64,000 bases of DNA from an uncultured Succinivibrionaceae bacterium (GCA_944393045.1 CALXYT010000005.1:1-64000); one strand, 5' to 3'. Positions 4,901 through 45,971 are shown, counted from the first letter of the stretch. The notes: generated by a model from the letters alone, not told the origin. Made by a program: numbers and translations.

Positions 4901-5751
4901 AAAAAGAATTAAGTTCATACCAGGTTGCATTTGACAGATATGATGAAGAAGTTGCGCAATTAAAAAATGATATTAGTAGCAATGAACAGATTGCTCTTAG
5001 ATTAGAAAGTAAAGTAAGAGAGCAGAAGTCATGCCTTAACCAGGAAGACTTAGCAGAAAATGGCACGATAAAAGCTCAAAGCGTATCAGCATTAACTACC
5101 AATCTCGCACAAAAGCAGGAGGAGGTAGATAATTTAAGTCATCGCATAAAATCAGATTTAGAAAATCGAGCCAAACGTGAGAATGCTGAGCAAAAGATTA
5201 AAAAGATTATGGAAGATAATTTGTGCTGGAGCAAATTAAATGAGTTAATTGGCTCCAGCACAGGCGAGAATTTTAGTAGATTTGCGCAAAGTATAACCTT
5301 TGATATGCTATTAAATGTGGCTAATCGTTATTTACGTGATTTTATGCCTCGATATGAACTTAAGAGAGTAGTTGATCGTAATTTTAAAGCGTATAACTTA
5401 CTAGTTATGGTTATTGACCATGAAAATGGCGATATGGAGCGACCATATGCCACAATTTCAGGGGGGGAAACTTTTGCTGTATCATTATCCTTAGCAATTG
5501 CGCTTTCTGATATAACATGTGGTGGTAAACGCATTGAATCATTATTTATTGATGAAGGTTTTGCGACTCTTGATCCTGATAACTTAGAGTGTGTTATGGG
5601 AGTATTAGAAAAATTAAATCGTAAAGGGCGAACTATTGGTATAATTTCGCATTTAGAGAGCATTCCAACAAGAGTAGATACCAGAGTTGCCCTTGAGCGA
5701 ATTTTAGATGAGCCAATGCATAGCAAAGTGGTTATTTATCCAAAATTATAG
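1966..5751 (+). CDS. sbcC: Exonuclease SbcCD, ATPase subunit SbcC (SMC/Rad50-like)
   Basis: Walker A GNTGAGKST at the N-terminus; ~900 aa of coiled coil; central CPLCG zinc hook; C-terminal ABC signature ISGGETFAVSLSLAIAL and Walker B LFIDEGFATLD. Length is 1261 aa. Confidence 0.9.
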   Translation: MKILSVKGKNLASIAQEFTIDFTDPRFVRSGLFAITGNTGAGKSTILDAISLALYATTPRFANSKSTKVELNNIDININNPCNILTYGAKKGYAEVKFIGNNGYHYISRWEVERTRSKLQESMRLEVEETNVCLTKKREILQTVIEAIGLDAVQFNQVVLLPQGDFSNFLKAEPDKRLALLEKITGSTIYKSLSKMAFEKNKQIEEQIKEERLLVSALEVLDDKEFQELRQEHAQAQSMAERIKLRLEHIDDYQETLSEYEIIRAKVTKLKQDLINKEASNSALEIANKRKKYQEYIEYAGNIHFISELKSLQKECHELAIKKQSIEKELSELALEIHKLEPKLDEQKLNEFNFRQKCLAREEEVICAKNFDIKITSAQQLLADLAQDLSKKQAQKCAKKKEVEEKNLAKENLLEQNQDLLAQIAGNKTATYVFSLNDIEDNLRNFIKLQSEIGNYQEQEELIKEKLGKITLRIESLKLEQGKVATNIELLNEKMNLVKEQNKKLAASSLDELNILNEQFRKMQLLATQVALMPKKIGSKIANDEQIISLKNKEQTLLDQISKDEQKVTQLESQVLKLTQEYKNKEKLSIFKEQRKHLIDNEPCPLCGAVHHPYADIEFDDKEFELLKFECDNVTDSLKAIKESLADKKIAYSSEHANLMHLTNSQKDLEAEISGYLQKITELCQSVNKTTVYASTVPFWDKFNDELSASIKEQEQNIKKIKDDLQQKDTNQHQLNELSNELLKLQESYNLFTNEINTLELDKQDFDIKSISAEISSRKESVKNYRSSIDRYLKDVLPWESYVIKEDDNKIELIDSGSEKLLKVLLANITSYNKQVEEQQKIEEQISKLAVEIAKANSELALFTSESDNKAKDVQSKEQELKDLTDKRKFLLDGRSVEQYEKDIQDTKDEFSKSIGELENKINLTKSKYSHVSINLTDAQTSFMEHSAEFDKVEREFERTAQSYGVEISYFRNILELDKKELSSYQVAFDRYDEEVAQLKNDISSNEQIALRLESKVREQKSCLNQEDLAENGTIKAQSVSALTTNLAQKQEEVDNLSHRIKSDLENRAKRENAEQKIKKIMEDNLCWSKLNELIGSSTGENFSRFAQSITFDMLLNVANRYLRDFMPRYELKRVVDRNFKAYNLLVMVIDHENGDMERPYATISGGETFAVSLSLAIALSDITCGGKRIESLFIDEGFATLDPDNLECVMGVLEKLNRKGRTIGIISHLESIPTRVDTRVALERILDEPMHSKVVIYPKL

Positions 5752-5763
5752 TAAAACTTACTA

Positions 5764-5797
5764 ATTCTGCTAAAAATTTTATTTTTATCAGAATTTT
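5764..5797 (+). terminator. Possible AT-rich hairpin terminator after sbcC
   Basis: attctgctaaaa / ttttatcagaat form an inverted repeat (one mismatch) with a 7-nt loop, followed by TTT. Weak, AT-only stem. Confidence 0.3.
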
Positions 5798-6126
5798 GCA
5801 AAAAACGTGGTAGCTTTTAATAGCGAAAAAGTAAGATAACAATTATGGATAATTGCCTTTTTAGAGTAACTTAAAAATACTGGATTTTTTTAAGGTTTAT
5901 GTTTAATACATCCATATAACATAAAGTAAATATAACATAGGCCAGAGATGTTTATGTTTAACTACTTACGTTAAAAATTAGGGATGGCGCATATTTTTGG
6001 ATATTTTAATAGCAAAAATTCTATTTACATTGTACAATATAATCATGTAATAAAATTGTAAAAACTGTTATAAATATGTAAATTTTTTTTGGTTTTAGGT
6101 ACTGGGGATTTGAGGTAGATATTTCT

Positions 6127-8659: not shown

Positions 8660-9877
8660 ATGAAAAGAGCAGTTATTACTGGTATAGGAATTGTTTCTAG
8701 TATTGGTAACAATGTGCAGGAAGTTCTTGCTTCTCTCAAGCAAGGAAAATCAGGTATCACTTTCTCCGAACAATTTAAAGAGGTTGGTTTAAGATCTCAG
8801 GTTTGGGGTGATGTTAAGCTCTCATTAAGTGAGGCAATTGACCGTAAGATATTTAGATTTATGGGAGATGCTGCAGGGTATGCTTATTTATCTATGGAGC
8901 AGGCTATTAAGGATGCTAACTTGCCAGAAGATCAAGTCTCAAATGTCAGAACCGGTTTAATTTGTGGTTCAGGCGGTCCATCTACTCATCATCAGGTGGA
9001 GGCTTGTGATACTCTTAGAACTAAAGGTGTCAGAAAAATTGGACCTTATCAGGTGACTCGTTGTATGAGTTCCACAACTTCTGCATGTTTAGCCACTCCT
9101 TTTAAGATTAAAGGGGTAAATTACAGTATAAGCTCTGCATGTTCTACCTCAGCGCACTGCATTGGTAATGCTTATGAACAAATTATGTTAGGTAAGCAAG
9201 ATATAGTATTTGCAGGCGGTGGAGAAGATTTAGATTGGACATTAGCTTGTTTATTTGATGGAATGGGGGCATTAAGTACCAAGTATAACGATACTCCAGA
9301 AAAAGCTTCTCGTACTTACGATGCTGATCGTGATGGTTTTGTGATAGCTGGCGGCGGTGGTATGCTTGTAGTAGAAGAGTTAGAGCATGCTTTAGTTCGT
9401 GGTGCGAAGATTTATGCTGAAATCGTAGGTTATGGTGCAACATCTGATGGTTATAATATGGTGCAGCCTTCAGGTGAGGGGGCAGTAAGATGCATGCAGG
9501 ATGCGATGAGTTCTTTAGGGGAGCGTAAAGTGCAGTACATTAACACTCACGGTACCTCAACTCCTGTTGGTGATACTAAAGAGCTTGAGGCTATTAGAGA
9601 AACCTTTAAAGAAAATGTGCCATATATTAGCGCAACCAAGTCTTTAACTGGTCACTCTCTAGGGGCAGCTGGTGTACAAGAGGCAATTTATTCTATTTTA
9701 ATGCTTGAGCATAATTTTATTGCTCCAAGTATAAATATTGAGAACTTAGATTCTTTAGCCCAAGGTCTCCCAATTGTAACAAGTCCTAAGGAAATAGAGC
9801 TTGATACAGTTATGAGTAATAGTTTTGGGTTTGGTGGTACTAATGCAAGTTTAGTATTAAGTAAATACCTGGGATAA
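8660..9877 (+). CDS. fabB: 3-oxoacyl-ACP synthase I (KAS I)
   Basis: 405 aa. Active-site Cys context [23 protein letters not shown] and GHSLGAAG motifs. Conserved mnmC–fabB divergent arrangement supports KAS I over KAS II. Confidence 0.85.
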
Positions 9878-9894
9878 TTTAAGATATTCTAAGA

Positions 9895-9932
9895 ATACCG
9901 AAGATCGCAAAGAGGTTTTCGGTATTTTTTTT
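9895..9932 (+). terminator. Rho-independent terminator after fabB
   Basis: Stem ataccgaa / ttcggtat followed by TTTTTTTT. Confidence 0.55.
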
Positions 9933-9942
9933 GGGAAAAAAC

Positions 9943-10656
9943 ATGCGTTTAGATAAATGTTTAACGGAGAATTTAGCTGTTAGTCGTAAAGATGCAGGCA
10001 AACTTATTAAGCAAGGCAAAGTTTGTGTTAATGGCATAGTAGTAAAGGATAGTGCCTATAAAGTGGCTTTAAACGATGAACTAACCTTTATGGACGAAAA
10101 GCTTCATATTAAGGAAGAAGATTATAAAGCTTATTATATGTTAAATAAGCCTAAAGGTTACGTTTGCGCAAGTGATGATTCCTTAAATCCTTATGTAATA
10201 GCCCTTTTTAAAGATGAATATAAAGCTCGTGAGTTATTTTGTGTTGGGCGCCTGGATATTGATACCACTGGGTTGTTATTAGTAACTAACGATGGTCTTT
10301 GGAGTCATAAGATAACATCTCCTAAGCATCATGTATCAAAGGTATATCGAGCATTTTTAGCTGATCCTTGTCCAATTGATGCAATAGATACTTTTAAAGA
10401 AGGCATAGTTCTTAAAGGTGAGAGTAGTAAGACCAAGAGTGCCAAACTTACAATAATAAATCAGCATGAGGTATTATTAGAAATTACTGAAGGAAAATAT
10501 CATCAGGTAAAGCGCATGTTTGCAGCTATTGGCAATAAAGTCGAAAAACTTGAGCGTCTAACAATTGGGGGCGTATCTTTAGATAAGGAGCTTAAGCCTG
10601 GTGAGTTTCGTAAATTAACTCAGGAAGAGCTTAAGCTTTTAGGAGTGGGGGGATAA
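9943..10656 (+). CDS. rsuA: 16S rRNA pseudouridine(516) synthase RsuA
   Basis: Starts MRLDKCL like E. coli RsuA. S4 domain, catalytic GRLDIDTTGLLL, and C-terminal EGKYHQVKRMFAAIGN / GEFRKLTQEE. The ORF-track TTG at 9931 would overlap the terminator; ATG at 9943 preferred. Confidence 0.8.
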   Translation: MRLDKCLTENLAVSRKDAGKLIKQGKVCVNGIVVKDSAYKVALNDELTFMDEKLHIKEEDYKAYYMLNKPKGYVCASDDSLNPYVIALFKDEYKARELFCVGRLDIDTTGLLLVTNDGLWSHKITSPKHHVSKVYRAFLADPCPIDAIDTFKEGIVLKGESSKTKSAKLTIINQHEVLLEITEGKYHQVKRMFAAIGNKVEKLERLTIGGVSLDKELKPGEFRKLTQEELKLLGVGG

Positions 10657-10666
10657 GTTTAAATTT

Positions 10667-11029
10667 TTATGCAAAAATCTTAGAGCGAAAAGAAAAGAAG
10701 ATAGCGCCCATAATGCAAAGACCTGCCCAGGCATAATCCCAGTTCCATTTTTCATCAAAATAAAAAATGCTAATTGGGATAAATACTGATAAGGTGATAG
10801 CTTCCTGCATGATTTTTAGCTGACCAACAGTAAAATATTGGTTAGCATAACGGTTAGCAGGAACCATTAAACAATACTCAAAAAGTGCAATGCTCCAGGA
10901 AAATAAAATGGCATAGAATAATGGTTTATTGGCCATTTCCTTTAAATGAGCATACCACGCAAAATTCATAAAAATATTACTGCATATTAGCAGTAAAACA
11001 CAACCTAAGATAACTAATTGTGCTGGCAT
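10667..11029 (-). CDS. Small inner-membrane protein, DMT-superfamily-like (DUF486-type)
   Basis: 120 aa with four predicted transmembrane helices, resembling the small DMT/DUF486 family. No motif-level proof. Confidence 0.5.
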   Translation of the reverse strand: MPAQLVILGCVLLLICSNIFMNFAWYAHLKEMANKPLFYAILFSWSIALFEYCLMVPANRYANQYFTVGQLKIMQEAITLSVFIPISIFYFDEKWNWDYAWAGLCIMGAIFFSFRSKIFA

Positions 11030-11180
11030 TTAAAAACTCCTCTTAAAGTATCGGTGCATTATACAGGAATTTTACGCAAGAATATTGTAAAATGCTAAAT
11101 ATTCAAAAATATATTACGTATTTTTAGAGGTGGTAATTCTGTAATAAAATACAAATTTGGGTAAATAACGAGGAATCTTT

Positions 11181-11576
11181 ATGGCTAAACCAGGGGCAAA
11201 GGGCATTACACGCATCATTAATGCTACTTTTTATAGTATGAAAGGTTTAAAAGCTGCTTTAATTCATGAGGCAGCATTCAGGCAGGAGGCATTTTTAGCA
11301 GTAATTATGATTGTTGCCGCTTTCTTTATTGCCTCAAGTTTAGTAGAACTTATTTTACTTATCATAGGTCCGTTTTTAGTGATGACGGTGGAGATTTTAA
11401 ATTCTGCCATTGAAAGTGTAGTAGATCGCATCGGTAATGAATACCATGAACTGGCAGGTAGAGCTAAGGATATGGGAAGTGCTGCGGTATTTATCATGCT
11501 TATGTTTACCTTGATTGTTTGGGTATTGGTAGTTGATAATAAATATTTTAATGTATTAACAAAGGCTTTTAATTAA
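11181..11576 (+). CDS. dgkA: Diacylglycerol kinase
   Basis: 131 aa with three transmembrane helices. Conserved AAFRQE and EILNSAIE motifs as in E. coli DgkA. Confidence 0.85.
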   Translation: MAKPGAKGITRIINATFYSMKGLKAALIHEAAFRQEAFLAVIMIVAAFFIASSLVELILLIIGPFLVMTVEILNSAIESVVDRIGNEYHELAGRAKDMGSAAVFIMLMFTLIVWVLVVDNKYFNVLTKAFN

Positions 11577-12112
11577 TGAATATACCTAATAATGATAATT
11601 CTCTTATAACTAAAGAGTACGAAGATTTTGTAAAAGATCCTGGCTATGTGCAAATTTTAGCGGATATGCACCTGCGAATAAAGGCGGTATTTATCGCTAA
11701 AATTATTTTGCTTCTTATGGCGTTAAAGCCCTTTATCTTTAAAGTATATGGTTATTTAAGTGCTGATTTACCTCTAGCGCAAATCACCTTTACTTTTTAT
11801 GAACTTATCGAGGCTCTGGTTCCTTTTACTTTAGGTGTGTTGTGGTTTATTATAAAAAAATCTTTCTTTGCGATAATTTGCTGCTTGGGAATGCTAATTT
11901 TATTTTTATATTTAGTAGCTATCAATCCACAAGCAAGCCCAACTTTAATTGTTAATATTCTTATTTTAGTAGTACTTTATTTTGCAGTACGCATGCAGGC
12001 GCAGATAGAACGTTTTGACCGAAATTTTAAGTTGCTCCATGATATACCACGATATCGTCAATATAAAAAGTTACTTCTAAAAGAGCAGAAACGTAAACTT
12101 AAGGCTAAATAA
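11576..12112 (+). CDS. Hypothetical polytopic membrane protein
   Basis: 178 aa, about four hydrophobic helices and a basic C-terminus. Start overlaps the dgkA stop (ATGA), implying translational coupling. No family recognised. Confidence 0.45.
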   Translation: MNIPNNDNSLITKEYEDFVKDPGYVQILADMHLRIKAVFIAKIILLLMALKPFIFKVYGYLSADLPLAQITFTFYELIEALVPFTLGVLWFIIKKSFFAIICCLGMLILFLYLVAINPQASPTLIVNILILVVLYFAVRMQAQIERFDRNFKLLHDIPRYRQYKKLLLKEQKRKLKAK

Positions 12113-12322
12113 TATAATAATGTTTCTTAGATGTAAAAATTAAACCATGCTCAAATTATTAGCTGGCAGCATGCGTATTTTTATCCAAATTACTTACGTT
12201 TACTGTTAATATGTGAGTATTGGTTTAAGCTGTATATATTTACCCCAAGCGAGCGCTTAAAAATAAAGTTCTAATGTGCTTTTTGGAAGGTGGTAGATAT
12301 CTTATTTTATAATTAAAGGAGA

Positions 12323-12883
12323 GTGGTAATGATTGAGTATATCAATAGCCTCGATTTAATTTTGCAGGTATATTACGGTTTAGCAATCGTTGGCGGGATA
12401 ATCTTTTTAGCGCAGCTTTTAATGCTCTTTTTAGGTTTTAGTACAGATGGTATAACTACCGATGTGCCTGATTCTTCAACCTATGCTTTTAAGTTCTTTT
12501 CATTACAAGGATTATCAGGGTTCTTTTTAATCTTTGGGTTAATTGGTGCTTATACCCAAGATATTACTAATAATGGCATTATTTCTTTTATCGCAGGTTT
12601 AGTTGCAGGTTTAATCATGAACTTTATTATCTGCAAACTTATCAATATGCTCTTAAAGCTTCAAAGCAGTGGTAATTTAGATTACCAAAATGCAATAGGT
12701 CTTTCAGGTACCGTTTATTTAAGTATACATAAAGGAGAGGTTGGACAGGTTCAAATTAATATTCAAAATCGCTTAGTATTCCCCAAGGCAGTCTCAGCTG
12801 ATAATGAAGAGATAAAAACAGGGGAGCGAGTTAAAGTTGTTAGAGTTGATAGCGATAATATCTTAGTAGTTGAAAAGTGCTAG
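12323..12883 (+). CDS. yqiJ: NfeD-like (YqiJ-type) membrane protein, partner of flotillin
   Basis: N-terminal transmembrane helices plus a C-terminal OB-fold-like soluble domain (GQVQINIQNRLVFPKAV...GERVKVVRV). Immediately upstream of an SPFH/flotillin gene, as in E. coli yqiJK. Confidence 0.65.
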   Translation: MVMIEYINSLDLILQVYYGLAIVGGIIFLAQLLMLFLGFSTDGITTDVPDSSTYAFKFFSLQGLSGFFLIFGLIGAYTQDITNNGIISFIAGLVAGLIMNFIICKLINMLLKLQSSGNLDYQNAIGLSGTVYLSIHKGEVGQVQINIQNRLVFPKAVSADNEEIKTGERVKVVRVDSDNILVVEKC

Positions 12884-12936
12884 TTATTATTAAATTAAAG
12901 TTATAGTTATAAATACATTATAAAGGACAGTAAACA

Positions 12937-14412
12937 ATGCTTGTTATTATTTCGTTTGTTATTGGTGCGTTAATATTACTGGCACTCATAATATTCTTTG
13001 TTAATCGCTATAGACGATGCCAGTCTGACCAAATCTTAGTTATTTACGGTATGGTATCAGGGGAGAGAACTTCAAAATGTATGCATGGTGGTGGCGCATT
13101 TGTATGGCCATTAATCCAAGATTATAAATATATGAGCTTAACCCCAATTACCATTAATATTCCATTACAAGGGGCGCTTTCTTCGCAGAATATTCGTATT
13201 AATGTTCCTTCAGCATTTACTATTCGTATTAGTGAAGAACCAGGTATTATGGAAAACGCGGCTGTATGTTTGCTTGAGCTTGGGCAAGAGCAGATTGAAG
13301 ATATGGCAACAAATATTATCTTTGGTCAGTTGCGTTTGACAGTAGCATCTTTAACAATTGAAGAAATTAACCAAGACCGTGAAAGCTTCTTAGAAAAGAT
13401 TCGTAAGAATGTGGAACCTGAATTAAATCGTATCGGTTTAACATTACTTAACGTAAACGTTACAGATATTACCGATGATGCAGACTATATTGCAAGTATT
13501 GGTAAGAAGGCAGCTGCTGAGGCAGTAAACCAAGCTAAGATTGACGTGGCAACTCAAGAGAAGATTGGTTCTATTGGTGAATCTGCAGCAAATAAGGAAA
13601 AAGATATTTCTGTTGCGGTGAATATGGCGGAAGCACAAAAAGGTATGAAGCTTGCCGAAGCTGACCAGCGCTGCTACGTGGCAGAACAGGAATCTAATGC
13701 TATTGCAGGTGAAAATGACGCTAAAGCAAAGATTGCACAATCAAATGCTAATTTAAGTGTGATTGAGGCTGAGGCTCGTAGACAGGCTGAAGTTGCGCAG
13801 CGTATGGCAGAAGTTGAAATTCAGAAAGCTCAGTACGAAGCTGAAAAGCAACGTTTGAATGCTGCCGAAATTGCCCAGCAAGAAATTGATAAACAGAAGA
13901 TTATTATCGATGCACAAGCTGTTGCTGAAAAAGCTCGTCAGGAAGCTGCTGGTGAGGCTGATGCTATTTTACTTAAATATCAGGCTGAAGCAAAAGGTCA
14001 GCAAGCTTTACTTGAGGCAAAGGCTGAGGGGTATAAGAGATTGGTGCAGAGTGCTGGTAATAACGCATCTGATGCCGCAACTTTACTTATGATTGAAAAA
14101 CTTGAACAATTAGTTAGTATGCAAACAGAAGCTATTAGAAATATTAAGATTGATAAGGTTACTGTTTGGGATAAGGGGGAAGGAGCATCTGATGGTAAAA
14201 CCTCTACTGCTGACTTCTTATCTGGTATGGTAAAGAGTTTGCCACCACTACATGATGTAGCGCAGATGGCAGGCTTAAACTTACCTCAATACCTAGGCTC
14301 TTTAGGTAGTGCTCCAATAGATGTTAAAAATGCAAAGGTGGTAAAGGAAGATAAAAAAGTAGCAGCAACATCTAAAGCTACTAAAGAAGAAAGTGCTAAT
14401 AAAGCAGAGTAA
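12937..14412 (+). CDS. yqiK: Flotillin-like SPFH/band-7 protein (YqiK family)
   Basis: N-terminal transmembrane helix, SPFH domain, then a long Ala/Glu/Gln-rich coiled coil (AEAQK…AEARRQAEVAQR…). 491 aa. Confidence 0.8.
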   Translation: MLVIISFVIGALILLALIIFFVNRYRRCQSDQILVIYGMVSGERTSKCMHGGGAFVWPLIQDYKYMSLTPITINIPLQGALSSQNIRINVPSAFTIRISEEPGIMENAAVCLLELGQEQIEDMATNIIFGQLRLTVASLTIEEINQDRESFLEKIRKNVEPELNRIGLTLLNVNVTDITDDADYIASIGKKAAAEAVNQAKIDVATQEKIGSIGESAANKEKDISVAVNMAEAQKGMKLAEADQRCYVAEQESNAIAGENDAKAKIAQSNANLSVIEAEARRQAEVAQRMAEVEIQKAQYEAEKQRLNAAEIAQQEIDKQKIIIDAQAVAEKARQEAAGEADAILLKYQAEAKGQQALLEAKAEGYKRLVQSAGNNASDAATLLMIEKLEQLVSMQTEAIRNIKIDKVTVWDKGEGASDGKTSTADFLSGMVKSLPPLHDVAQMAGLNLPQYLGSLGSAPIDVKNAKVVKEDKKVAATSKATKEESANKAE

Positions 14413-38429: not shown

Positions 38430-38945
38430 ATGACCTTATTAACTACAATATTATTAGTGCTATTTTTATTAGTATCAATTTTCCTTGTTATCTTAATTTT
38501 GGTGCAACAGGGTAAAGGTGCTGGTATGGGCGCATCATTTGGTGCAGGTGCATCTAATACTTTATTTGGTTCAGTTGGTAGTGCTGGTTTCTTAACTAAG
38601 TTTACTTGGTCGCTCACTTTCTTATTTTTTGCATTAAGTATTGCATTAGGTTATTTAAATGCTCATCGTGTAAAGAACGATGCCAGCGGTTCATTTGAGC
38701 AGATTGAAGAAGTAGCAGCTCCTGCAACAGTAAAGGCAGTTGATGTTAATCAAGAACTTAATAAAGATGTTAAAGATGCAGGAACTAAAGATTCTGCTAA
38801 AAAGGCTGGTGGTCCTGCTGTTGAGATTAAGAAGTCTCAAGAAGTGGCTCAGCCAAAAGAAGTTAAGGCTCCAGAAGCTCAGCCTCCTAAGGTTCAAGAA
38901 GTACCTCAAACACAGGAAGCTCCTAAGACTCAAGAAGCTAAATAG
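38430..38945 (+). CDS. secG: Preprotein translocase subunit SecG with a ~60-aa low-complexity C-terminal extension
   Basis: N-terminal ~110 aa match SecG (LVQQGKGAGMGASFGAGASNTLFGS). The C-terminus is Lys/Glu/Pro/Gln-rich (…AQPKEVKAPEAQPPKVQEVPQTQEAPKTQEAK). Confidence 0.85.
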   Translation: MTLLTTILLVLFLLVSIFLVILILVQQGKGAGMGASFGAGASNTLFGSVGSAGFLTKFTWSLTFLFFALSIALGYLNAHRVKNDASGSFEQIEEVAAPATVKAVDVNQELNKDVKDAGTKDSAKKAGGPAVEIKKSQEVAQPKEVKAPEAQPPKVQEVPQTQEAPKTQEAK

Positions 38946-38951
38946 TTTTTT

Positions 38952-39036
38952 GCCCGGGTGGTGGAATTGGTAGACACGCTACCTTGAGGTGGTAGTGCGT
39001 AACGGCGTACGGGTTCAAGTCCCGTCTCGGGTACCA
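38952..39036 (+). tRNA. leuU: tRNA-Leu (anticodon GAG), copy 1
   Basis: 85-nt cloverleaf. Anticodon loop cTTGAGGt. Long variable arm typical of Leu. Near-identical to E. coli leuU, which likewise follows secG. Ends in CCA. Confidence 0.9.
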
Positions 39037-39141: not shown

Positions 39142-39226
39142 GCCCGGGTGGTGGAATTGGTAGACACGCTACCTTGAGGTGGTAGTGCGTAACGGCGTAC
39201 GGGTTCAAGTCCCGTCTCGGGTACCA
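39142..39226 (+). tRNA. leuU: tRNA-Leu (anticodon GAG), copy 2
   Basis: Sequence identical to copy 1, 105 bp downstream; the short upstream tgcccggg context is also repeated. Confidence 0.9.
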
Positions 39227-39617
39227 ACTTTTTTCCTCTTATAAATAAAGTTAGTGAAAGAGTAATGCAAATTACTCTTTTGCTTACTTATTTTTTTAAC
39301 CTTTTGCAAAAGATTCACTTTCTGTATGTTGATTGCATAAATTTACATATTAGTTCTATCTTCCTCAATTATTCGCAAAAGTATACTTTCTGCGATACAA
39401 TACTTTTTATCAAAGTTTAAGTAATTTAAATTTTAAAATTCTGTAAAAAATTACTTGATTTGTGCGTATAAAAACTATATTATAACAAATATAATGTTGT
39501 GCTAAATCATTGCCATTGGCTCATATTTGTTATAAGCGTCAGCTAGGTTTATAATTAGCAATAACAAAAATATAATTATAAATACAAATATAAATTGAAG
39601 AAACACAAGGAATAACT

Positions 39618-40478
39618 GTGAAAAAATTTTTACTTTTATTAGCGTTTGTTGCTACTATTCCTTTTACTTTAGCTCACGGAGCTCCTGCAAAATATAGAGT
39701 AGCAGTAGGTGAATTAGTAGTAAGCGATCAGGTTAATCCAAAGCAAGCTAAGATTGTTAAGGAATCTAGTTTAATTGCTGATATTGAGAATGCTATTCGA
39801 AATGGTAGAAAGTTTGATTTACTTTCACGCCGTCAGGAAACTTTAACTGCTATTCGTAATGAACAGAAGTTTGCGCAAAGTGGTTTAGCTGCTAAAGATG
39901 CTGCTTTTACAGGTCAGCTTTCTAACGCTCAGGCTATTGTTCAGGTTGAGGTATTAGTCTTTAGTTTTGGGAGAAACGCCTCTAAAGTTCCTCACCTAGA
40001 AAATAAATACCGTGTAAGTGATAATTGTTCTATTGAATTAGCAGTACAAATCGTTGATACCACCAAAGGCACAGTACTAGGAGCTTTTCCGATTAAAGCA
40101 TCTTCAGGCAGTGGTACTTTTGTGAATAATGGTATTGGTGGTGCTAGTCGTTTAATCTTAGATAAAACTATGCAAAAAGCTGCTGCCTCACTAGCCAATC
40201 AGCTTTCTGATACTGTTTATCCAATCACTGTTATTACCGTAAAAGGTAATGATATCTATATTAACCGTGGTAATGATTCAGGTATAAAACAAGGCGAAAT
40301 ATTTGAAGTATTTGCTCCGGGTGAAGAACTCATTGACCCACAAACAGGTGAAAATCTTGGTACAACTGAAACCTTAGTAGGTAAGGTTAAAGTTAAAAAG
40401 ATTAACCCAAAAGTAACTATCGTAAGACCATTAACTTCTAATTTAGAAGTGCAAGCTGGCTATATTCTTCGTAGATAA
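39618..40478 (+). CDS. Secreted protein with an N-terminal LpoB/TolB-N-like domain and a C-terminal beta-rich domain (paralogue of the next gene)
   Basis: Signal peptide (…TLAHG|APAK). N-domain pattern YRVAVGELVV…IADIENAIRNGRKFDLLSRRQ matches the LpoB/CsgG/FlgT-N type fold signature. The C-terminal ~80 aa align clearly with the C-terminus of the 40576 product. Confidence 0.6.
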   Translation: MKKFLLLLAFVATIPFTLAHGAPAKYRVAVGELVVSDQVNPKQAKIVKESSLIADIENAIRNGRKFDLLSRRQETLTAIRNEQKFAQSGLAAKDAAFTGQLSNAQAIVQVEVLVFSFGRNASKVPHLENKYRVSDNCSIELAVQIVDTTKGTVLGAFPIKASSGSGTFVNNGIGGASRLILDKTMQKAAASLANQLSDTVYPITVITVKGNDIYINRGNDSGIKQGEIFEVFAPGEELIDPQTGENLGTTETLVGKVKVKKINPKVTIVRPLTSNLEVQAGYILRR

Positions 40479-40575
40479 GCTTTTTTTATGGTAGTTTTTT
40501 TTAAAGAATGCTTTAGTAAAGAATAACTTTTACTAAAAGTTATATGCCCAAGTTTTTTATCTTGTAGGTCTTTTT

Positions 40576-41814
40576 ATGAGAAAATTATTTTTAGTTTTGC
40601 TAACTGCTTTTGTCTTTTTATTTGCCCATTTTGCTTATGCTGCCAGTGTTAAGCAACGAGCAGTTGAGGTAACAGCAGTAGGCGCAAATCGTGATGCTGC
40701 AATTCAGGCAGCCTTAGTTGAGGCTGTTTCCCAAGTTACTGGTGTTAAGATTGATTCCAATAACTCTTCATATATTGAAACAAAGTATAGTTCTACCGAA
40801 TCTTCTGAAGATGATGAAGATTCGTTTATCAATAATCTTGATGAGGTGCAAAGTAAGAATATTGAAGCTAAAGCTCAAGGTCATGTGTTAAGTTATGAGC
40901 TTTTAAGTGAAAAAACTTCAGCTGCTAATGAAAAGAATGTTGAGGTAACTATTAGAGCACTAGTTTCTTATTATGATGCAGGTGCGCAGGTAAACCGTCA
41001 GCGCTTGGCAGTGCTTAATTTTAAGATTGACGATGACTCAAAAGTTGCTCGTTCTTTTGCACGTTTACTTGAGCAATCAGTTTCTTCTTATTTAACGCAG
41101 GCTCGTAACTTTGCGGTACTTGATAGAGAGTATTTAGCTGAGCGTGATAGTGAACTTGCGCAATTATTACGTAGTGATGTGTTGCCAGTTGAAAGAGCTC
41201 GTATTGGTAATTCTTTAGGAGCTGACTATATGTTAGTAGGCACTATAAATCACTTTAGTATTAAGCGTGAGCAAGAGGTTATTGCCGTAGTTAATGAAGA
41301 GGCATTAGTTGCTAAAGGTAATGCTGCAATTTCTTGGCGTTTAATCAATGTGCCAACCGGAATGGTAGTTGCCTCTAAGCTTGAGAATATCTCCTTTAAT
41401 GAACCAATAGCTGATTCTTTTGAGAGTGCTTTAGTTCGTCCGGCAGAAAAAGTAGGTACTAATATCGCAAGTAGAATCAACGAAACTATTTATCCAATCT
41501 TAGTGGTAGCTAATCGTAATGGCACTCTAACTATTGGTAGAGGTGGCGATTATATCTCTCAAGGAGAAACTTACGATTTAATTGAATATGGTCAAGGAAT
41601 GTATGATCCATATACTAACGAGCCAATTGCTTATGAGGAATATGTTATTGGTAAGGTAGAAATTACTAAAGTAGATCCAAAACTTTCATATGCGAAAGTT
41701 ATTAGTATTACTAAAGATTTACCTGCGCAAATTATACCTAATACTTTAATTATCAGAAAAAGTGCACACATAAATCAGGAGAAACACGTAAAAACATTAC
41801 AACCAAATTGGTAA
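40576..41814 (+). CDS. Secreted protein with an LpoB/TolB-N-like domain and a C-terminal beta-rich domain (paralogue of the previous gene)
   Basis: Signal peptide (…HFAYA|ASVK). RLAVLNFKIDDDSKVARSFARLLEQSVSSYL…LGADYMLVGTINHF is a TolB-N/LpoB-like signature. C-terminus YPILVVANRNGTLTIGRGGDYISQGETYDL…DPYTNEPIAYEEYVIGKVEITKVDPK parallels the 39618 protein. Confidence 0.6.
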   Translation: MRKLFLVLLTAFVFLFAHFAYAASVKQRAVEVTAVGANRDAAIQAALVEAVSQVTGVKIDSNNSSYIETKYSSTESSEDDEDSFINNLDEVQSKNIEAKAQGHVLSYELLSEKTSAANEKNVEVTIRALVSYYDAGAQVNRQRLAVLNFKIDDDSKVARSFARLLEQSVSSYLTQARNFAVLDREYLAERDSELAQLLRSDVLPVERARIGNSLGADYMLVGTINHFSIKREQEVIAVVNEEALVAKGNAAISWRLINVPTGMVVASKLENISFNEPIADSFESALVRPAEKVGTNIASRINETIYPILVVANRNGTLTIGRGGDYISQGETYDLIEYGQGMYDPYTNEPIAYEEYVIGKVEITKVDPKLSYAKVISITKDLPAQIIPNTLIIRKSAHINQEKHVKTLQPNW

Positions 41815-41833
41815 ATAAGGGAAAATAATTACA

Positions 41834-43318
41834 ATGAATAAGAATTTACAGTTTAAAAAGTGCCTGTTAAGTATGATCGTTGCTTCATCAGTAGTATTTG
41901 CAAGTGAAGCTCTGGCAGAGGAGGCTGTTTTAGGGCAATCAACTCCTGTTACCACAGGACAAGAGCTTGCAATGAGTAATGTAGCATCACAATCAAAGGT
42001 TGATTTATCAAATATTGGTACTGAATTAAACGATGTATCCCAAACTGATGATAAGTTATTACAAGACGCTCCTCAAGAAGTTAAGCAAAATGTATTATTA
42101 GATGTTTTAGTGCAGCAAAAAATCGATAACTTCTTAGCAGATCATGGTATTTCTAATGGTTTTGGGAAATCTGCGGATACTGAAGGCAAAATTGGTTTTG
42201 GGGCTGCACAAATTGTTGATAAACCAGTTTCTCATGCTGAATATGCTAAGTATCGTGTAATGGCTTATGAAAAAGCTTACGAAAAAGCATTAAAGACTTT
42301 TATTCAAGATAATGCAGTAATGATTCAGGCGCAAACTTTATCAGAACTTTATACTGACGCCTCAACTCCAATGCCCCCTGAAACCGTATTAAAAGAAGGT
42401 AAAGGTTCATTTGGGGCTTTATGGGATAAGGTAGTAGCTTTAGCAGATTCTGAAGTTAGTGGCATGCTTGAGAAAAATGGCGTTGATCCAAAGCAGTATA
42501 ATGCTCGCAATCCTGATCAAAAGAAAGAGCTTATTCGTGATATGATTGCCAAAAAAGAAGTAGCTAATATTGCCAAGACTCTATCTGGTTTAACTGTGGC
42601 GCAGACCTTCTTTGAGGTTAATGGTGAAGATTCAGCTGTGGGGGTTGTGATTTTCTATTCACCAAAGACTCAGGCTTTGGCTGAAAGCTTACGTGCAGGT
42701 TTAAAGCCTGCAATTAACAATACTGGTAAGGCTTTGACTGACCTTTTACCATTAAATGAACCTGCCAAGCTTTACGATATGATTGGTACCAGATTATTAG
42801 TAGATGAAACTGGTCCAGTTATTGTAAGTTTTGGGCAATGGGCAAATGTAAGTACTGCAAATTCTCAATCAGTAAAGGCTCGTTATAGAAATGCAGCTAT
42901 TAGACAAGCAGATCAGATGTCTTTAAGTCAGATAGCATCATTTTTAAACTTAAGCTTTAGTGCAAAAAATGAAACTGAACGTAGTTCTCTTTTAGTAGAG
43001 GCGGCTATTACCGATGGGGATACTGGTATGATTACCAATGAAAGCAGAAGCCAAATCGTTGATATTGTAAGAGAACATTCAAGATCTCGTGCCAGTGAGT
43101 TATTACGTGGTGCAAGAACTCTTAAGCAGTGGGTATATATCACTCCTCAAGGTCAAGAGGTAGTAGGGGTAATCAAGGCTTATAGTTTTGCAAGTATGCA
43201 GCAGGCCATTAATATGGGCAAGAAAACTATTAACTCTAATAATCCTAACACCACCAACAGTGCTGCCGGTACAAGTTCTCGTCAAGGTGAGGTAGTTACT
43301 GACTTTAATGTATTTTAG
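41834..43318 (+). CDS. Hypothetical secreted protein (494 aa)
   Basis: Signal peptide (…FASEALA|EEA). Gene start 19 bp after the preceding stop, so probably co-transcribed. No family recognised. Confidence 0.5.
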   Translation: MNKNLQFKKCLLSMIVASSVVFASEALAEEAVLGQSTPVTTGQELAMSNVASQSKVDLSNIGTELNDVSQTDDKLLQDAPQEVKQNVLLDVLVQQKIDNFLADHGISNGFGKSADTEGKIGFGAAQIVDKPVSHAEYAKYRVMAYEKAYEKALKTFIQDNAVMIQAQTLSELYTDASTPMPPETVLKEGKGSFGALWDKVVALADSEVSGMLEKNGVDPKQYNARNPDQKKELIRDMIAKKEVANIAKTLSGLTVAQTFFEVNGEDSAVGVVIFYSPKTQALAESLRAGLKPAINNTGKALTDLLPLNEPAKLYDMIGTRLLVDETGPVIVSFGQWANVSTANSQSVKARYRNAAIRQADQMSLSQIASFLNLSFSAKNETERSSLLVEAAITDGDTGMITNESRSQIVDIVREHSRSRASELLRGARTLKQWVYITPQGQEVVGVIKAYSFASMQQAINMGKKTINSNNPNTTNSAAGTSSRQGEVVTDFNVF

Positions 43319-43416
43319 TATATAAAGCCGTACTCATTATTATTCCCACTATCATCATGGTGGGAATATAAGATATAAAGATGTAAGTTACAAGTTACTT
43401 TGAAAAAATTAATCAT

Positions 43417-44868
43417 ATGAAGATAAAACTAATTATTCCGCTTTTATGTTTGCTTTTTAGTATAACAGGTTGCGCCACAAGAAGTGATTCATTGGGCCTG
43501 ACTGATAATTCAGATATCTTCACAAATTATTCTCAATCTTATAAGCCTGCAAGAGAGGCATTATTAGCTGGTAATACTACTGATATTATTCAGAGATTTA
43601 AACTTCGTTTTACCACAGAAGATGGTGTAAAGCTTTCGCGTGATGAAATGCTCGATCTTATGATTGAGAACGATAGCGCTCTTTCGATGATAGAAAAAGG
43701 ACTTATTTTATTAAATAGTGGGGAATTTGAGACAGCGTTAATTTTTTTTGATGCCGCAGAAAAGTCTATTAAATTAGATGAGGAAGAAGGCTTTACTGCT
43801 GGTGATTTCTTAAAGTCTAGTGTTTCAGTATTATTTGGTACTGAAGAGTTAGAGGATTATGAATTACGTAGTTATGAAAAAGTAATGATGCTCAATTACA
43901 AGGCATTATGTTATATGCTCTTAGGGGATCGTAAAGCATATAATGTAACTCGTAGAGCTATTGATTTACAGCAAAGAGAATGGGAAAAATTTAAAGCCAA
44001 GCAACTAGAATTACAAAAAGATATTGAAGAAGAAAAGCGCATAGCTAATAACGAAAATAAAGATACTGATATTGACGTAGATACCTTATCGCAACAGGCA
44101 AAAGAAGAGGCTAAATTAGTTACTAGTGCTTATGTTAATCCATTTAGTGATTATATGAACGGTCTACTGATGGAATTAGATAGCTTTGAGGATGTGGCTA
44201 TTGGTGATAATGCTAGTATTTCATATAGTAAAGTTATTGCTAATAATAAACGCTGCAAAGCTGCAAAAGAGGCAATAAAGGATTTAAAAAAGTCCAAAAA
44301 ACCAAGAGGTAAAAAGTTAGTACAGGTACTTTTAGCTGATGGTTTTGCGCCAACACGCGATATAGTTACTAAAGATATTGAAGGTTTTGCGACAGTAAAT
44401 TTTGCGGATCCTGTTGAAGTTCCTTCTATGGTCGAAAGCGCAAAAGTTATTGTAAAGCGCAAAAAATATAACTTCTCCTCATTAAGTGAAATTCAGGCTA
44501 TTGTTTATCGTGATGAAATGGATAATTTACTTTATCGTTATTTCATGGTGCTTGGACAGATGCTCCGTTCTGGATTTTTATATGTTGATGGAGAAGAGGG
44601 GGGTGGCTTATTAAATAAGCTTATAACAAGACTCCAGGTGCCTGATACTCGCTCTTGGTTATCATTACCTAAGAAGGTGCAGGTAGCTAGATTTTTTGTG
44701 CCAAATAAAGTTAATGAAATAACAATACAGACTTTTGATAAAAATAGTGGTAAGTTAGCATCAGTAGATATAGCTCTTGCTAAGAAGGGACCTACCGTTG
44801 TTTATGCTGTTAGCTACGATAAGTCATTAAAGGCTTATGCTAATATGAAGTCTTGGATTGATGAGTAA
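43417..44868 (+). CDS. Hypothetical lipoprotein with a helical (TPR-like) N-terminal region (483 aa)
   Basis: Lipobox FSITGC. A helical repeat-like N-terminal third, a charged Lys/Glu-rich linker, then a C-terminal α/β region. No family recognised. Confidence 0.5.
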   Translation: MKIKLIIPLLCLLFSITGCATRSDSLGLTDNSDIFTNYSQSYKPAREALLAGNTTDIIQRFKLRFTTEDGVKLSRDEMLDLMIENDSALSMIEKGLILLNSGEFETALIFFDAAEKSIKLDEEEGFTAGDFLKSSVSVLFGTEELEDYELRSYEKVMMLNYKALCYMLLGDRKAYNVTRRAIDLQQREWEKFKAKQLELQKDIEEEKRIANNENKDTDIDVDTLSQQAKEEAKLVTSAYVNPFSDYMNGLLMELDSFEDVAIGDNASISYSKVIANNKRCKAAKEAIKDLKKSKKPRGKKLVQVLLADGFAPTRDIVTKDIEGFATVNFADPVEVPSMVESAKVIVKRKKYNFSSLSEIQAIVYRDEMDNLLYRYFMVLGQMLRSGFLYVDGEEGGGLLNKLITRLQVPDTRSWLSLPKKVQVARFFVPNKVNEITIQTFDKNSGKLASVDIALAKKGPTVVYAVSYDKSLKAYANMKSWIDE

Positions 44869-44890
44869 TAATTAAAATTAAGGGAAGATA

Positions 44891-45349
44891 ATGAAAACTA
44901 AATTACTATTAGCTATGGCAGTAATGCTTTCATTAGGTGGCTGCGCGTCTAATAATACCGAGCAAGAAGTGCAAGTTCCATTAGAGATTCGTTCTAATCC
45001 TCAGCTTGCCATTATCTATTCAGATGAAATGGCTGCCAGAGCACTGGTACCAATGAGTATTAATGTTGATAATTCACAAAAATTACCACGAGCTGTGGTG
45101 CGCATGAAAAATCGTGCTACTATTGATGTTCCAATGGAATATCAGGTGCAGTGGGAAGATGCTTATGGAGCACCTATTCAGATTAAGGCTGCCTGGCAAA
45201 GAATGGTAATGCCTGCAAATGCCGAAAAAACTATTGTTAATCTTGGTAAGAGCGAAGATGCTAAAACTGCTACTATTCACATTCGTTTAGCAACTGATGT
45301 AGAAATTTGGGTACCATATCCTGATCCGGTAGAGTTAATTAGACAGTAG
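44891..45349 (+). CDS. ycfL: YcfL-family lipoprotein (DUF1425)
   Basis: Lipobox SLGGC. YQVQWEDAYGAPI matches the YcfL YRFYWYDERG core. Sits immediately upstream of lpoB, as in E. coli. Confidence 0.6.
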   Translation: MKTKLLLAMAVMLSLGGCASNNTEQEVQVPLEIRSNPQLAIIYSDEMAARALVPMSINVDNSQKLPRAVVRMKNRATIDVPMEYQVQWEDAYGAPIQIKAAWQRMVMPANAEKTIVNLGKSEDAKTATIHIRLATDVEIWVPYPDPVELIRQ

Positions 45350-45366
45350 GAAAAATAATTAAGGAG

Positions 45367-45894
45367 ATGCTTGTGAAATTATTAACATCAGTAGTACTTA
45401 CATTATCTGCACTAACTGCTTTAACAGCATGTTCAAGAAATGATGCTTATTATGGTAGAACTACCAGTGTTTCCATAGTTGATTCATCAGAACGTTTAAA
45501 GTTAAATACTAAAATTAGCTTATCAGATGTTATTGCTTTTGCGGAAAATCTTACTAATAAGATGCTCACCTCAAAGTATATTGCACGTGCTAAGAAGCCA
45601 CCACGAGTGATTGTGGCAGAACTACGCCAAAATACTCATGATGAAAATCTTCGTATTGAGGATATTCAGGACCGCATTACTGAGGTGTTGTTAAACTCAG
45701 CTCAAGTGCGTATTGTAGATGAAAGCGCAAATCGTTTTGATTATATTATGCGTACCGAAATTACTGATATGATAACTTATGCGCCTGATGGACAGAAGTT
45801 AGTAGATTACACCATGAAAATTAAGCTTTTTGATATAAATGGAGAGCTTAAAGGTCAGTGGTCTGATGATTTATCCTTGTTTAAGAATAGATAG
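45367..45894 (+). CDS. lpoB: Penicillin-binding protein activator LpoB-family lipoprotein
   Basis: Lipobox ALTAC. Matches the E. coli LpoB C-terminal domain pattern (AENLTNKML…RVIVAELRQNTHDENLRIEDIQDRITEVLLNSAQVRIVD…ANRFDYIMRTEITDM). The true start may be the GTG at 45373, which has AAGGAG 6 nt upstream. Confidence 0.65.
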   Translation: MLVKLLTSVVLTLSALTALTACSRNDAYYGRTTSVSIVDSSERLKLNTKISLSDVIAFAENLTNKMLTSKYIARAKKPPRVIVAELRQNTHDENLRIEDIQDRITEVLLNSAQVRIVDESANRFDYIMRTEITDMITYAPDGQKLVDYTMKIKLFDINGELKGQWSDDLSLFKNR

Positions 45895-45940
45895 TTAAGG
45901 GTTGAAAGGATTATTCTTAAAAGGAATAATAAATAAGAGT

Positions 45941-45971
45941 AACGGGTAAGTATGAGCTTATCCGTTTTTTA
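45941..45971 (+). terminator. Rho-independent terminator after lpoB
   Basis: Stem aacgggtaag / cttatccgtt (one G·U pair), 6-nt loop, then TTTTTTATT. Confidence 0.6.

Follow-up and report, generated by a model that had tools for sequence, protein, structure and literature searches.

A cluster of six genes, designated P1 to P6, was analysed in a stretch of 64,000 nucleotides of DNA from an uncultured Succinivibrionaceae bacterium (GCA_944393045.1 CALXYT010000005.1:1-64000). This whole stretch is referred to as the window. Judging from the sequences compared, the P1-P6 locus represents, in one lineage, a module without a name that is widespread in diderm bacteria. By analogy with FlgT and TsaP, we give about an even chance to the reading that P1-P6 constitute one operon for a self-contained envelope complex, which would be a periplasmic scaffold coupling the outer membrane to the cell wall. 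The cluster is identified by an open reading frame (ORF) scan of the window as six ORFs on the plus strand at 39618-45894:

39618-40478, plus strand: P1, 286 amino acids (aa), GTG start; secreted; FlgT_M/CsgG-like domain and FlgT_C/TsaP-like beta domain
40576-41814, plus strand: P2, 412 aa; secreted; predicted three-domain structural homologue of FlgT
41834-43318, plus strand: P3, 494 aa; secreted; DUF6844; accessory, in a variable slot between P2 and P4
43417-44868, plus strand: P4, 483 aa; lipoprotein; tetratricopeptide repeat (TPR)-like half and alpha/beta C-terminal domain
44891-45349, plus strand: P5, 152 aa; YcfL-like (DUF1425) lipoprotein
45367-45894, plus strand: P6, 175 aa; lipoprotein, predicted member of the broad LpoB family

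The preliminary description presented P1-P6 as six co-directional genes separated by 97, 19, 98, 22 and 17 bp in this order, and the ORF coordinates agree exactly with these gaps. The start codon of P1 is preceded 7 nt upstream by a Shine-Dalgarno sequence (AAGGA), and P6 starts at 45373 in public gene calls, which gives a product of 173 aa. All six products had also been described as exported. The translations bear this out: the N-terminal signal sequences of P1, P2 and P3 are cleavable and contain no lipobox cysteine, and P4, P5 and P6 have lipoboxes (ITG-C, LGG-C and LTA-C, respectively). None of these three lipoproteins has Asp at position +2. In Escherichia coli, lipoproteins without Asp at this position are sorted to the outer membrane. 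No internal terminator of any strength is detected within the P1-P6 cluster by a terminator scan, and the simplest reading is that the six genes are probably transcribed as one operon.

Relatives of P4 were taken from 78 loci in one-genome-per-species contigs, and the window proteins were searched against the six-frame ORFs there. P1, P2, P4, P5 and P6 are found in that order in 43 of the 45 loci with enough flanking sequence, and P3 is also present in nine of these 43. The six-gene neighbourhood, the recurrence of which was proposed as a check, is thus strongly conserved in the form P1-P2-(P3)-P4-P5-P6. The hosts include Sutterellaceae, Desulfovibrionaceae, Desulfobulbales, Desulfobacterales, Methylococcaceae, Cycloclasticus, Sedimenticola, Neptunomonas, Thalassolituus, Terasakiella, Rhodocyclaceae, Opitutaceae and Nitrospinaceae, about a dozen lineages in all. 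The genes flanking the cluster differ from locus to locus, and none of them is shared. The arrangement of the cluster is far beyond chance, because the same order is kept in nearly all of these loci in unrelated genomic contexts.

P1 and P2 had been described as paralogues with a common beta-rich C-terminal domain. This relationship is detected by BLASTP (E 6e-16 over the C-terminal 112 aa) and by hhalign alignment of the two family profiles built from orthologues (probability 100%, E 1.5e-66), in which residues 16-286 of P1 are aligned with residues 132-394 of P2. P1 is a paralogue of P2 minus the N-terminal (N) domain, and it is conserved among the related loci at E 1e-42 to 1e-111. The motif LGADY.L.G.I had been assigned to both proteins; it is present in P2 (LGADYMLVGTI), but P1 does not contain it literally. 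In Pfam scans, P1 matches CsgG (PF03783) with 21.0 bits (gathering score 20.8) and FlgT_C with E 3.8e-4, and P2 matches CsgG with 29.1 bits, LpoB with E 1.5e-4, FlgO with E 4e-4 and FlgT_M with E 0.035. The CsgG profile is matched only at positions 8-146 of 210. FlgT_N is not matched by P1 or P2 in these scans. These matches suggest that the central (M) domain of P1 and P2 belongs to the CsgG/LpoB/FlgO/FlgT_M group and that their C-terminal (C) domain belongs to FlgT_C. Residues 211-267 of P1 match TsaP (6VE2_O) with E 0.0096, and the P2 profile matches TsaP (3e-10) and CsgG (8e-5) among Protein Data Bank (PDB) chains.

The AlphaFold2 (AF2) model of P2 consists of three domains, N (24-134), M (142-305) and C (308-395). 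When this model is compared with the PDB by Foldseek, the best match is Vibrio FlgT (3W1E, E 2.5e-20 over 411 columns), and the cryo-electron microscopy structure of the LPHT ring, which contains FlgT, is matched with E 2.8e-19 (8Z5N). CsgG, PelC, HpaA and GNA1162 follow at about 1e-5, so that FlgT is ahead of CsgG and PelC by about 14 orders of magnitude. The domain boundaries of P2 closely parallel those of Vibrio cholerae FlgT, which are 24-109, 121-287 and 292-377 (bioRxiv 10.64898/2025.12.02.691832). P2 is therefore predicted to be a three-domain (N-M-C) structural homologue of FlgT, because FlgT is its best Foldseek match and the domain boundaries run in parallel, and P1 is predicted to be a two-domain (M+C) version. 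Of the LpoB/CsgG/FlgT-N-type fold that had been proposed for both proteins, membership of the CsgG/LpoB/FlgT group stands, but the fold is specifically FlgT-like by Foldseek rather than generic LpoB/TolB-N. The converse case, that P1 and P2 are unrelated to LpoB/TolB-N folds, is not supported, since both Pfam and Foldseek indicate a CsgG/LpoB/FlgT type.

The relationship of P1 and P2 to the other proteins of the cluster was also analysed. Alignment of the P1 and P2 families with the P6 family by hhalign is not significant. The LpoB-like protein of another locus (L093) matches the P2 hidden Markov model (HMM) at E 4e-9, and through this protein the sequences appear to connect the LpoB-like fold with the M domain. 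The link between P1/P2 and P6 stands on their common Pfam matches and this one protein. When the P2 and P3 families are aligned by hhalign, the signal peptides alone are aligned. LPP20/FlgP-like domains were considered for the N domain of P2 and for P3 and rejected, as Pfam scans of the isolated P2 N domain and P3 segments gave no match to the FlgP/LPP20 family.

P3 had been considered to lack a recognisable family. This is not the case, because P3 matches DUF6844 (Pfam PF20891) with E 1e-20 and 74.1 bits (gathering score 27) and has a homologue of solved structure, Francisella FTT_1539c. Residues 7-488 of P3 are aligned with residues 25-487 of this structure (4QVR_A) with E 1.7e-17, indicating that the homology extends over the full length. 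A word-indexed homologue search with P3 gives 4 proteins.

P3 is present in 12 loci, in which P2 is always short (412-445 aa). It is absent in 46 loci, and P2 is 620-997 aa long and abuts P4 in 43 of these 46. P2 homologues carry one, two or three tandem modules, trading off with P3; P2 of Neptunomonas marina (894 aa), for example, consists of three tandem M+C modules. As shown by this comparison of ORFs, the slot between P2 and P4 apparently holds either P3 or, fused to P2, one or two additional FlgT-like modules in tandem. Some Sutterella/Mailhella loci (L010, 7099-9927; L011, L019 and L034) have neither P3 nor extra P2 modules in this slot and have two other genes there, one for a 388-aa protein with a C-terminal TPR_17 match (E 4.7e-5) and one for a 548-aa protein with weak coiled-coil-type matches. 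This pair is a third way to fill the variable slot.

The order of the genes is changed in a few loci. It is P4-P5-P6-P3-P2 in locus L090, P4-LpoB-P3-P2 in locus L091 (Oceanisphaera sediminis, 9203-14364) and PEGA-P1/P2-like-P4-P5-P6 in locus L093. These families are retained together despite the reshuffled order, and this is therefore good evidence of their functional coupling. The loci compared show that the P4-P5-P6 trio is apparently the core of the module and is always accompanied by at least one secreted FlgT-like protein. In L093, the PEGA protein (358 aa, 5041-6117) is encoded before the P1/P2-like gene, and a 137-aa ORF without a Pfam match follows the LpoB-like gene. The L091 cluster adjoins coaE-pilD-pilC-pilB-pilA on the opposite strand. 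Type IV pilus genes were seen alongside no other locus, and this adjacency may be due to chance. A P2-like protein of 424 aa (P2 HMM, E 7e-71) is encoded in a Chlorobium-like metagenome contig (L092, 5409-9637), where it belongs to another co-directional five-gene set. Its neighbours (390, 244, 204 and 122 aa) have no Pfam matches, and P4, P5 and P6 are not found in this gene set. FlgT-like proteins may thus also serve other, equally unknown modules.

P4 opens the P4-P5-P6 trio, which is present in all but a few loci. Its helical half (residues approximately 38-291) is TPR-like, in that its tandem helix-turn-helix repeats superpose on TPR domains, and its alpha/beta C-terminal domain (299-475) has no structural match. 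P4 had been described as a TPR-like protein without a family. The TPR-like half is found, but P4 belongs to a large, unnamed family, which has 2381 cluster representatives at 50% identity and neither a Pfam model nor a solved structure. Many members of this family are 550-830 aa long and carry up to about 340 additional N-terminal residues ahead of the conserved region. P5, which adjoins P4 in nearly all loci, belongs to YcfL/DUF1425 (Pfam PF07233; 44.9 bits versus a cut-off of 28.3).

P6 matches Pfam LpoB (PF13036) with 28.6 bits versus 22.3, but only at profile positions 4-71 of 147, and it fails the LpoB equivalog TIGR02722 (26.9 bits versus a cut-off of 110.55). Neither a solved LpoB nor any other PDB chain is matched at E<=1 by the P6-family profile (12 sequences) or by the single P6 sequence. 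Thus, P6 is best classified by these scores as a member of the broad LpoB family, not as the LpoB equivalog. The cluster had been described as ending in ycfL-lpoB, and this holds for P5 as DUF1425 and for P6 as Pfam LpoB, but not for P6 as a true equivalog. Cys22 of P6 is invariant and is followed after about 13 residues by the first conserved column, V35; the intervening stretch is not proline-rich. In E. coli, a disordered, proline-rich linker some 55 residues long enables LpoB to cross the peptidoglycan layer; this linker was reportedly described by Egan and by Jean in 2014.

A description of the cluster was not found in the literature on DUF6844, DUF1425+LpoB and COG3014/COG5633/COG3417/YcfL. 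The view that the module is uncharacterised is thus acceptable insofar as it is unnamed and no published description of the whole cluster was found, but its parts have been studied in other bacteria, and the locus looks like a larger form of these partly studied loci. An operon of Campylobacter jejuni encodes Cj0089 (a 453-aa TPR lipoprotein), Cj0090 (122 aa) and Cj0091 (207 aa, COG3417/LpoB-type) (PMC3100323). The order and sizes of these proteins are as in P4-P5-P6 (483, 152 and 175 aa), but the operon is described with three genes and without FlgT-like P1/P2. Cj0091 is present in the outer-membrane fraction, and the cj0091 mutant is defective in adherence and early chick colonisation (PMC3100323).

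HP0018 of Helicobacter pylori is the homologue of Cj0089 and adjoins the LpoB-like protein HP1457 in enterohepatic Helicobacter species (PMC11394524), but the corresponding genes are scattered in H. pylori. It is a TPR lipoprotein (453 or 469 aa for Cj0089/HP0018 versus 483 aa for P4). Deletion of hp0018 causes hypervesiculation and loss of the helical shape, and HP0018 is located in foci and co-precipitates with AmiA and MltD (PMC11394524). HP1457 is encoded in one operon with Lpp20 and the secreted three-domain protein HP1454, the first domain of which is Lpp20-like, and the combination of HP1457 and HP1454 is reminiscent of P6 and P2. In the predicted operon FTT1537c-1540c of Francisella tularensis, FTT_1540c is located directly upstream of FTT_1539c. 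FTT_1540c is K07337, penicillin-binding protein activator, in KEGG (PMC8149597). The FTT1538c insertion mutant is mildly attenuated, and FTT1538c is abundant in outer membrane vesicles (PMC4696196, PMC6795709). The order of the LpoB-like and DUF6844 genes is as in L090 and L091, where a P2-like gene follows, but it is permuted as compared to that of the window, and the likeness is drawn from the homology of FTT_1539c and the annotation of FTT_1540c.

Among the known systems that come closest is the flagellar H-ring of Vibrio, in which FlgT is assembled together with FlgO and FlgP, two lipoproteins of the outer membrane that have a related fold (bioRxiv 10.64898/2025.12.02.691832). P2 has the FlgT N-M-C layout, P1 has M and C, and the genes for soluble FlgT-type proteins likewise accompany those for small lipoproteins of the outer membrane that belong to the LpoB/FlgO fold class. 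However, P4 (TPR-like), P5 (YcfL-like) and P3 (DUF6844) have no counterpart in the H-ring, P2 homologues contain up to three tandem M+C modules, and the flagellar context is lacking. Neither the annotations of the window nor the surroundings of the cluster in the loci inspected contain flagellar genes (flgO, flgP, motX, motY and those for the LP ring). P1 and P2 also resemble TsaP (6VE2, 3JC8), whose FlgT_C-like domains are matched by their C-terminal beta domain in sequence profiles, but the module of the cluster has no LysM domain and is not linked to pilus genes. TsaP is a peptidoglycan-binding protein that forms a ring around the type IV pilus secretin PilQ.

According to the scaffold reading, a platform tethered to the outer membrane would consist of P4, P5 and P6, and the soluble proteins P1, P2 and P3 would oligomerise on this platform into a periplasmic ring, disk or lattice, in parallel with the assembly of soluble FlgT with the lipoproteins FlgO and FlgP in the Vibrio H-ring, but with no flagellum. 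This arrangement is proposed because the proteins are exported, the lipoproteins lack Asp at +2, the FlgT and TsaP relatives are ring subunits and the modules occur in tandem. The variation in the number of tandem modules suggests a repetitive structural scaffold. Such an assembly would couple the outer membrane mechanically and organisationally to the cell wall, and would probably position or regulate peptidoglycan-remodelling enzymes. Its loss would be expected to result in vesiculation and in defects of cell shape and envelope barrier, rather than in a specific loss of secretion or motility. A scaffold role would explain why the presumed homologues have phenotypes in vesiculation, cell shape and colonisation. 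A bolder version is that the complex is an orphan H-ring, namely a new non-flagellar ring or disk under the outer membrane, with FlgT-like subunits on a TPR/YcfL/LpoB lipoprotein platform, which would be widespread among diderms and be the ancestral source of parts of the flagellar H-ring and basal disk and of ycfL-lpoB. This version is doubtful at present.

Several observations weigh against the scaffold reading. FlgT and TsaP are the analogues from which the idea of a ring or lattice is drawn. The confidence of the P2 model is only moderate, with a predicted local distance difference test (pLDDT) score of 70.8, and its global TM-score to FlgT is just 0.29-0.33, so that the match holds for the individual domains, whereas their relative orientation is uncertain. 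The matches of P2 to FlgT_M (14.7 versus 31.2) and of P1 to FlgT_C (21.3 versus 27) are below the Pfam gathering scores. P4 has 38 invariant columns, many of which are polar. These invariant residues exceed what a passive scaffold would need, and could represent a binding site or an enzymatic activity. The P4 homologue of Neptunomonas marina (L058, 9788-11347) has an ordinary signal peptide without a lipobox cysteine; as far as such signals can be read, the anchoring of P4 varies among lineages and lipid anchoring is not universal. Cj0089 fractionates with the inner membrane, unlike a purely outer-membrane platform (PMC3100323). P4 is equated with Cj0089/HP0018, and P5 with Cj0090, only by gene order, size and TPR annotation. 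Finally, the phenotypes of the presumed relatives are mild and may partly be polar effects.

The cluster had also been suggested to encode an elaborated activator of peptidoglycan synthase. On this reading, P6, like E. coli LpoB, would extend from the outer membrane and activate a class A penicillin-binding protein (PBP), and the other five proteins would modulate or localise it. This possibility would be favoured by the Pfam LpoB match of P6, by the KEGG label of FTT_1540c and by the peptidoglycan link proposed by the authors of the HP0018 study (PMC11394524). The order P5-P6 is also that of E. coli ycfL-lpoB, where the gene for a DUF1425 lipoprotein directly precedes that for a Pfam LpoB lipoprotein. 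However, P6 fails the LpoB equivalog, its family profile matches no solved LpoB, and the short stretch between Cys22 and V35 is not comparable to the long disordered linker of E. coli LpoB. The trio is also present in Campylobacter and Helicobacter, which, to our knowledge, lack PBP1B and its UB2H domain, and the FlgT-like proteins are left unexplained. A PBP activator is therefore the weaker option and is improbable. Presumably, none of P1-P4 is encoded alongside ycfL-lpoB in E. coli, and it is a matter of speculation that E. coli ycfL-lpoB is a reduced and repurposed remnant of a P1-P6-type module.

A role as an accessory ring, like that of FlgT and TsaP, for a trans-envelope machine whose genes lie elsewhere (a type IV pilus, a type II secretion secretin or a flagellar LP ring, for example) is unlikely to a similar degree. 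FlgT and TsaP, the closest structural relatives, encircle outer-membrane machines, and pil genes are located next to the Oceanisphaera cluster. The other loci inspected, however, have no adjacent pilus, secretin or flagellar genes, and the module contains neither a LysM domain nor MotX/MotY or FlgO/FlgP partners. Related clusters are present in Francisella, Sutterella and Parasutterella, which are non-motile. In addition, the hp0018 mutant of H. pylori retains sheathed flagella (PMC11394524).

An outer-membrane export channel of the CsgG/PelC type, in which P1 and P2 would make the pore or funnel through which some polymer or protein passes, is quite improbable. The M domain of P1 and P2 is of the same fold class as CsgG, PelC and GNA1162 (DUF799), both proteins pass the Pfam CsgG threshold, and CsgG and PelC are among the structural matches of P2. 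However, CsgG, PelC and GNA1162 are lipoproteins, whereas P1 and P2 have no lipobox and add an FlgT_C domain and, in P2, an N domain. The CsgG profile is covered only in part, the FlgT match is far better than those of CsgG and PelC, and genes for a synthase, a substrate or csgE/F-like partners are absent in and beside the cluster in the loci examined. The genes csgE/F and pelA-G and genes for DUF4810 or for curli subunits are not found by the cluster, and flagellar, curli and Pel genes are not found among the annotated genes of the window, in agreement with the preliminary description. The flagellar, curli and Pel readings are rejected because these partner genes are absent. On the best reading, the cluster does not encode a system of the flagellar, curli, Pel or E. 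coli PBP1B-activator kind. A surface adhesin or virulence locus, the role put forward for Cj0091 (adhesin) and for FTT1538c (host-trafficking effector), is very improbable. The adherence and colonisation defects of the cj0091 mutant, the attenuation of the FTT1538c mutant and the host partners of FTT1538c in the yeast two-hybrid assay speak for it. However, the module is often found in free-living bacteria from the sea and from sediments, in methanotrophs and in sulfate reducers, all of its domains have periplasmic-scaffold folds, the phenotypes are consistent with an indirect defect of the envelope, and surface exposure of Cj0091 could not be demonstrated (PMC3100323).

The features surrounding the cluster in the window are as follows:

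38952-39036 and 39142-39226, upstream of the cluster: tRNA-Leu(GAG) pair, identical sequences
39527-39576, plus strand: two sigma-70-like promoter candidates that overlap, TTGTTA-17-TATAAT and TTTATA-17-TATAAT, with 10 of 12 positions matched in each
45941-45966, plus strand: terminator-like hairpin with an 11-pair stem and a 4-nt loop, then a T run (TTTTATTGGT), 47 bp past the P6 stop codon
46080-46883, minus strand: Transposase_mut fragment (IS256/mutator family), apparently truncated, 267 aa, just downstream of the cluster

The promoter candidates are located in an AT-rich gap of 391 bp on the 5' side of P1. Promoter-like sites are not in excess in this region (19 versus 24.9 expected from shuffled sequences), and these sites are candidates only. 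A terminator following the cluster had been claimed and is found as the T-run hairpin at 45941-45966, though the count of the scan is near chance (5 terminator-like sites in the region versus 4.1 expected). The hairpin alone is weak evidence for a terminator, but its location directly past the last stop codon counts.

The cluster is flanked, as had been described, by the tRNA-Leu pair on the 5' side and by the remnant of an insertion sequence on the 3' side. The tRNA-Leu(GAG) genes are separated by an AT-rich spacer of 105 bp, are located directly after secG and are followed by a terminator-like hairpin at 39253-39284; leuU presumably occupies the same position after secG in E. coli. SecG (38430-38945) is 171 aa long, with a C-terminal tail of about 60 aa that is rich in K, E, P and Q and contains short repeats (...PKEVKAPEAQPPKVQEVPQTQEAPKTQEAK), whereas a typical SecG has about 110 aa. 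The Transposase_mut ORF is a fixed remnant and not an assembly artefact, because it is found at the same place in every metagenomic contig with an identical P4. The surrounding genes are housekeeping genes (sbcCD, ppk, ftsY, dnaK-dnaJ, rlmE-ftsH-folP-glmM-secG, rlmL and those for an ABC-F protein and DUF3466).

The placement of the cluster between tRNA genes and a transposase fragment is suggestive of transfer, but its GC content is 0.33-0.37, which is the same as that of the flanks, and the composition gives no support for recent acquisition. All six window proteins have their closest relatives in Desulfovibrionaceae (Mailhella) and Sutterellaceae, with P4 being 49-51% identical to its Desulfovibrionaceae homologues, whereas the flanking synteny rlmE-ftsH-folP-glmM-secG-tRNA-Leu looks gammaproteobacterial. 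The six-gene form including P3 is confined to Desulfovibrionaceae (Mailhella), Sutterellaceae and the lineage of the window. These relationships suggest lateral spread of the P3-containing version, with no GC anomaly.

The locus appears to be a larger variant of periplasmic scaffolds of FlgT/CsgG/LpoB fold that are tethered by outer-membrane lipoproteins, and it unites loci that have been studied in part. It provides one genomic frame for the colonisation defect of the cj0091 mutant, the hypervesiculation and loss of shape caused by deletion of hp0018, the Francisella operon with its orphan structure 4QVR and vesicle antigens, and the position of ycfL by lpoB in E. coli. FlgT-type proteins, which have been known only as builders of flagellar rings, have a much commoner non-flagellar life, in which they are coupled to LpoB-like and YcfL-like lipoproteins. 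Cultivable carriers of the module or its parts are Neptunomonas marina, Parasutterella muris, Oceanisphaera, Francisella novicida and C. jejuni. The mechanism of this complex would inform the coupling of the outer membrane to the cell wall, the control of vesiculation and the regulation of peptidoglycan enzymes, and would bear on whether LpoB evolved from a component of a structural scaffold.

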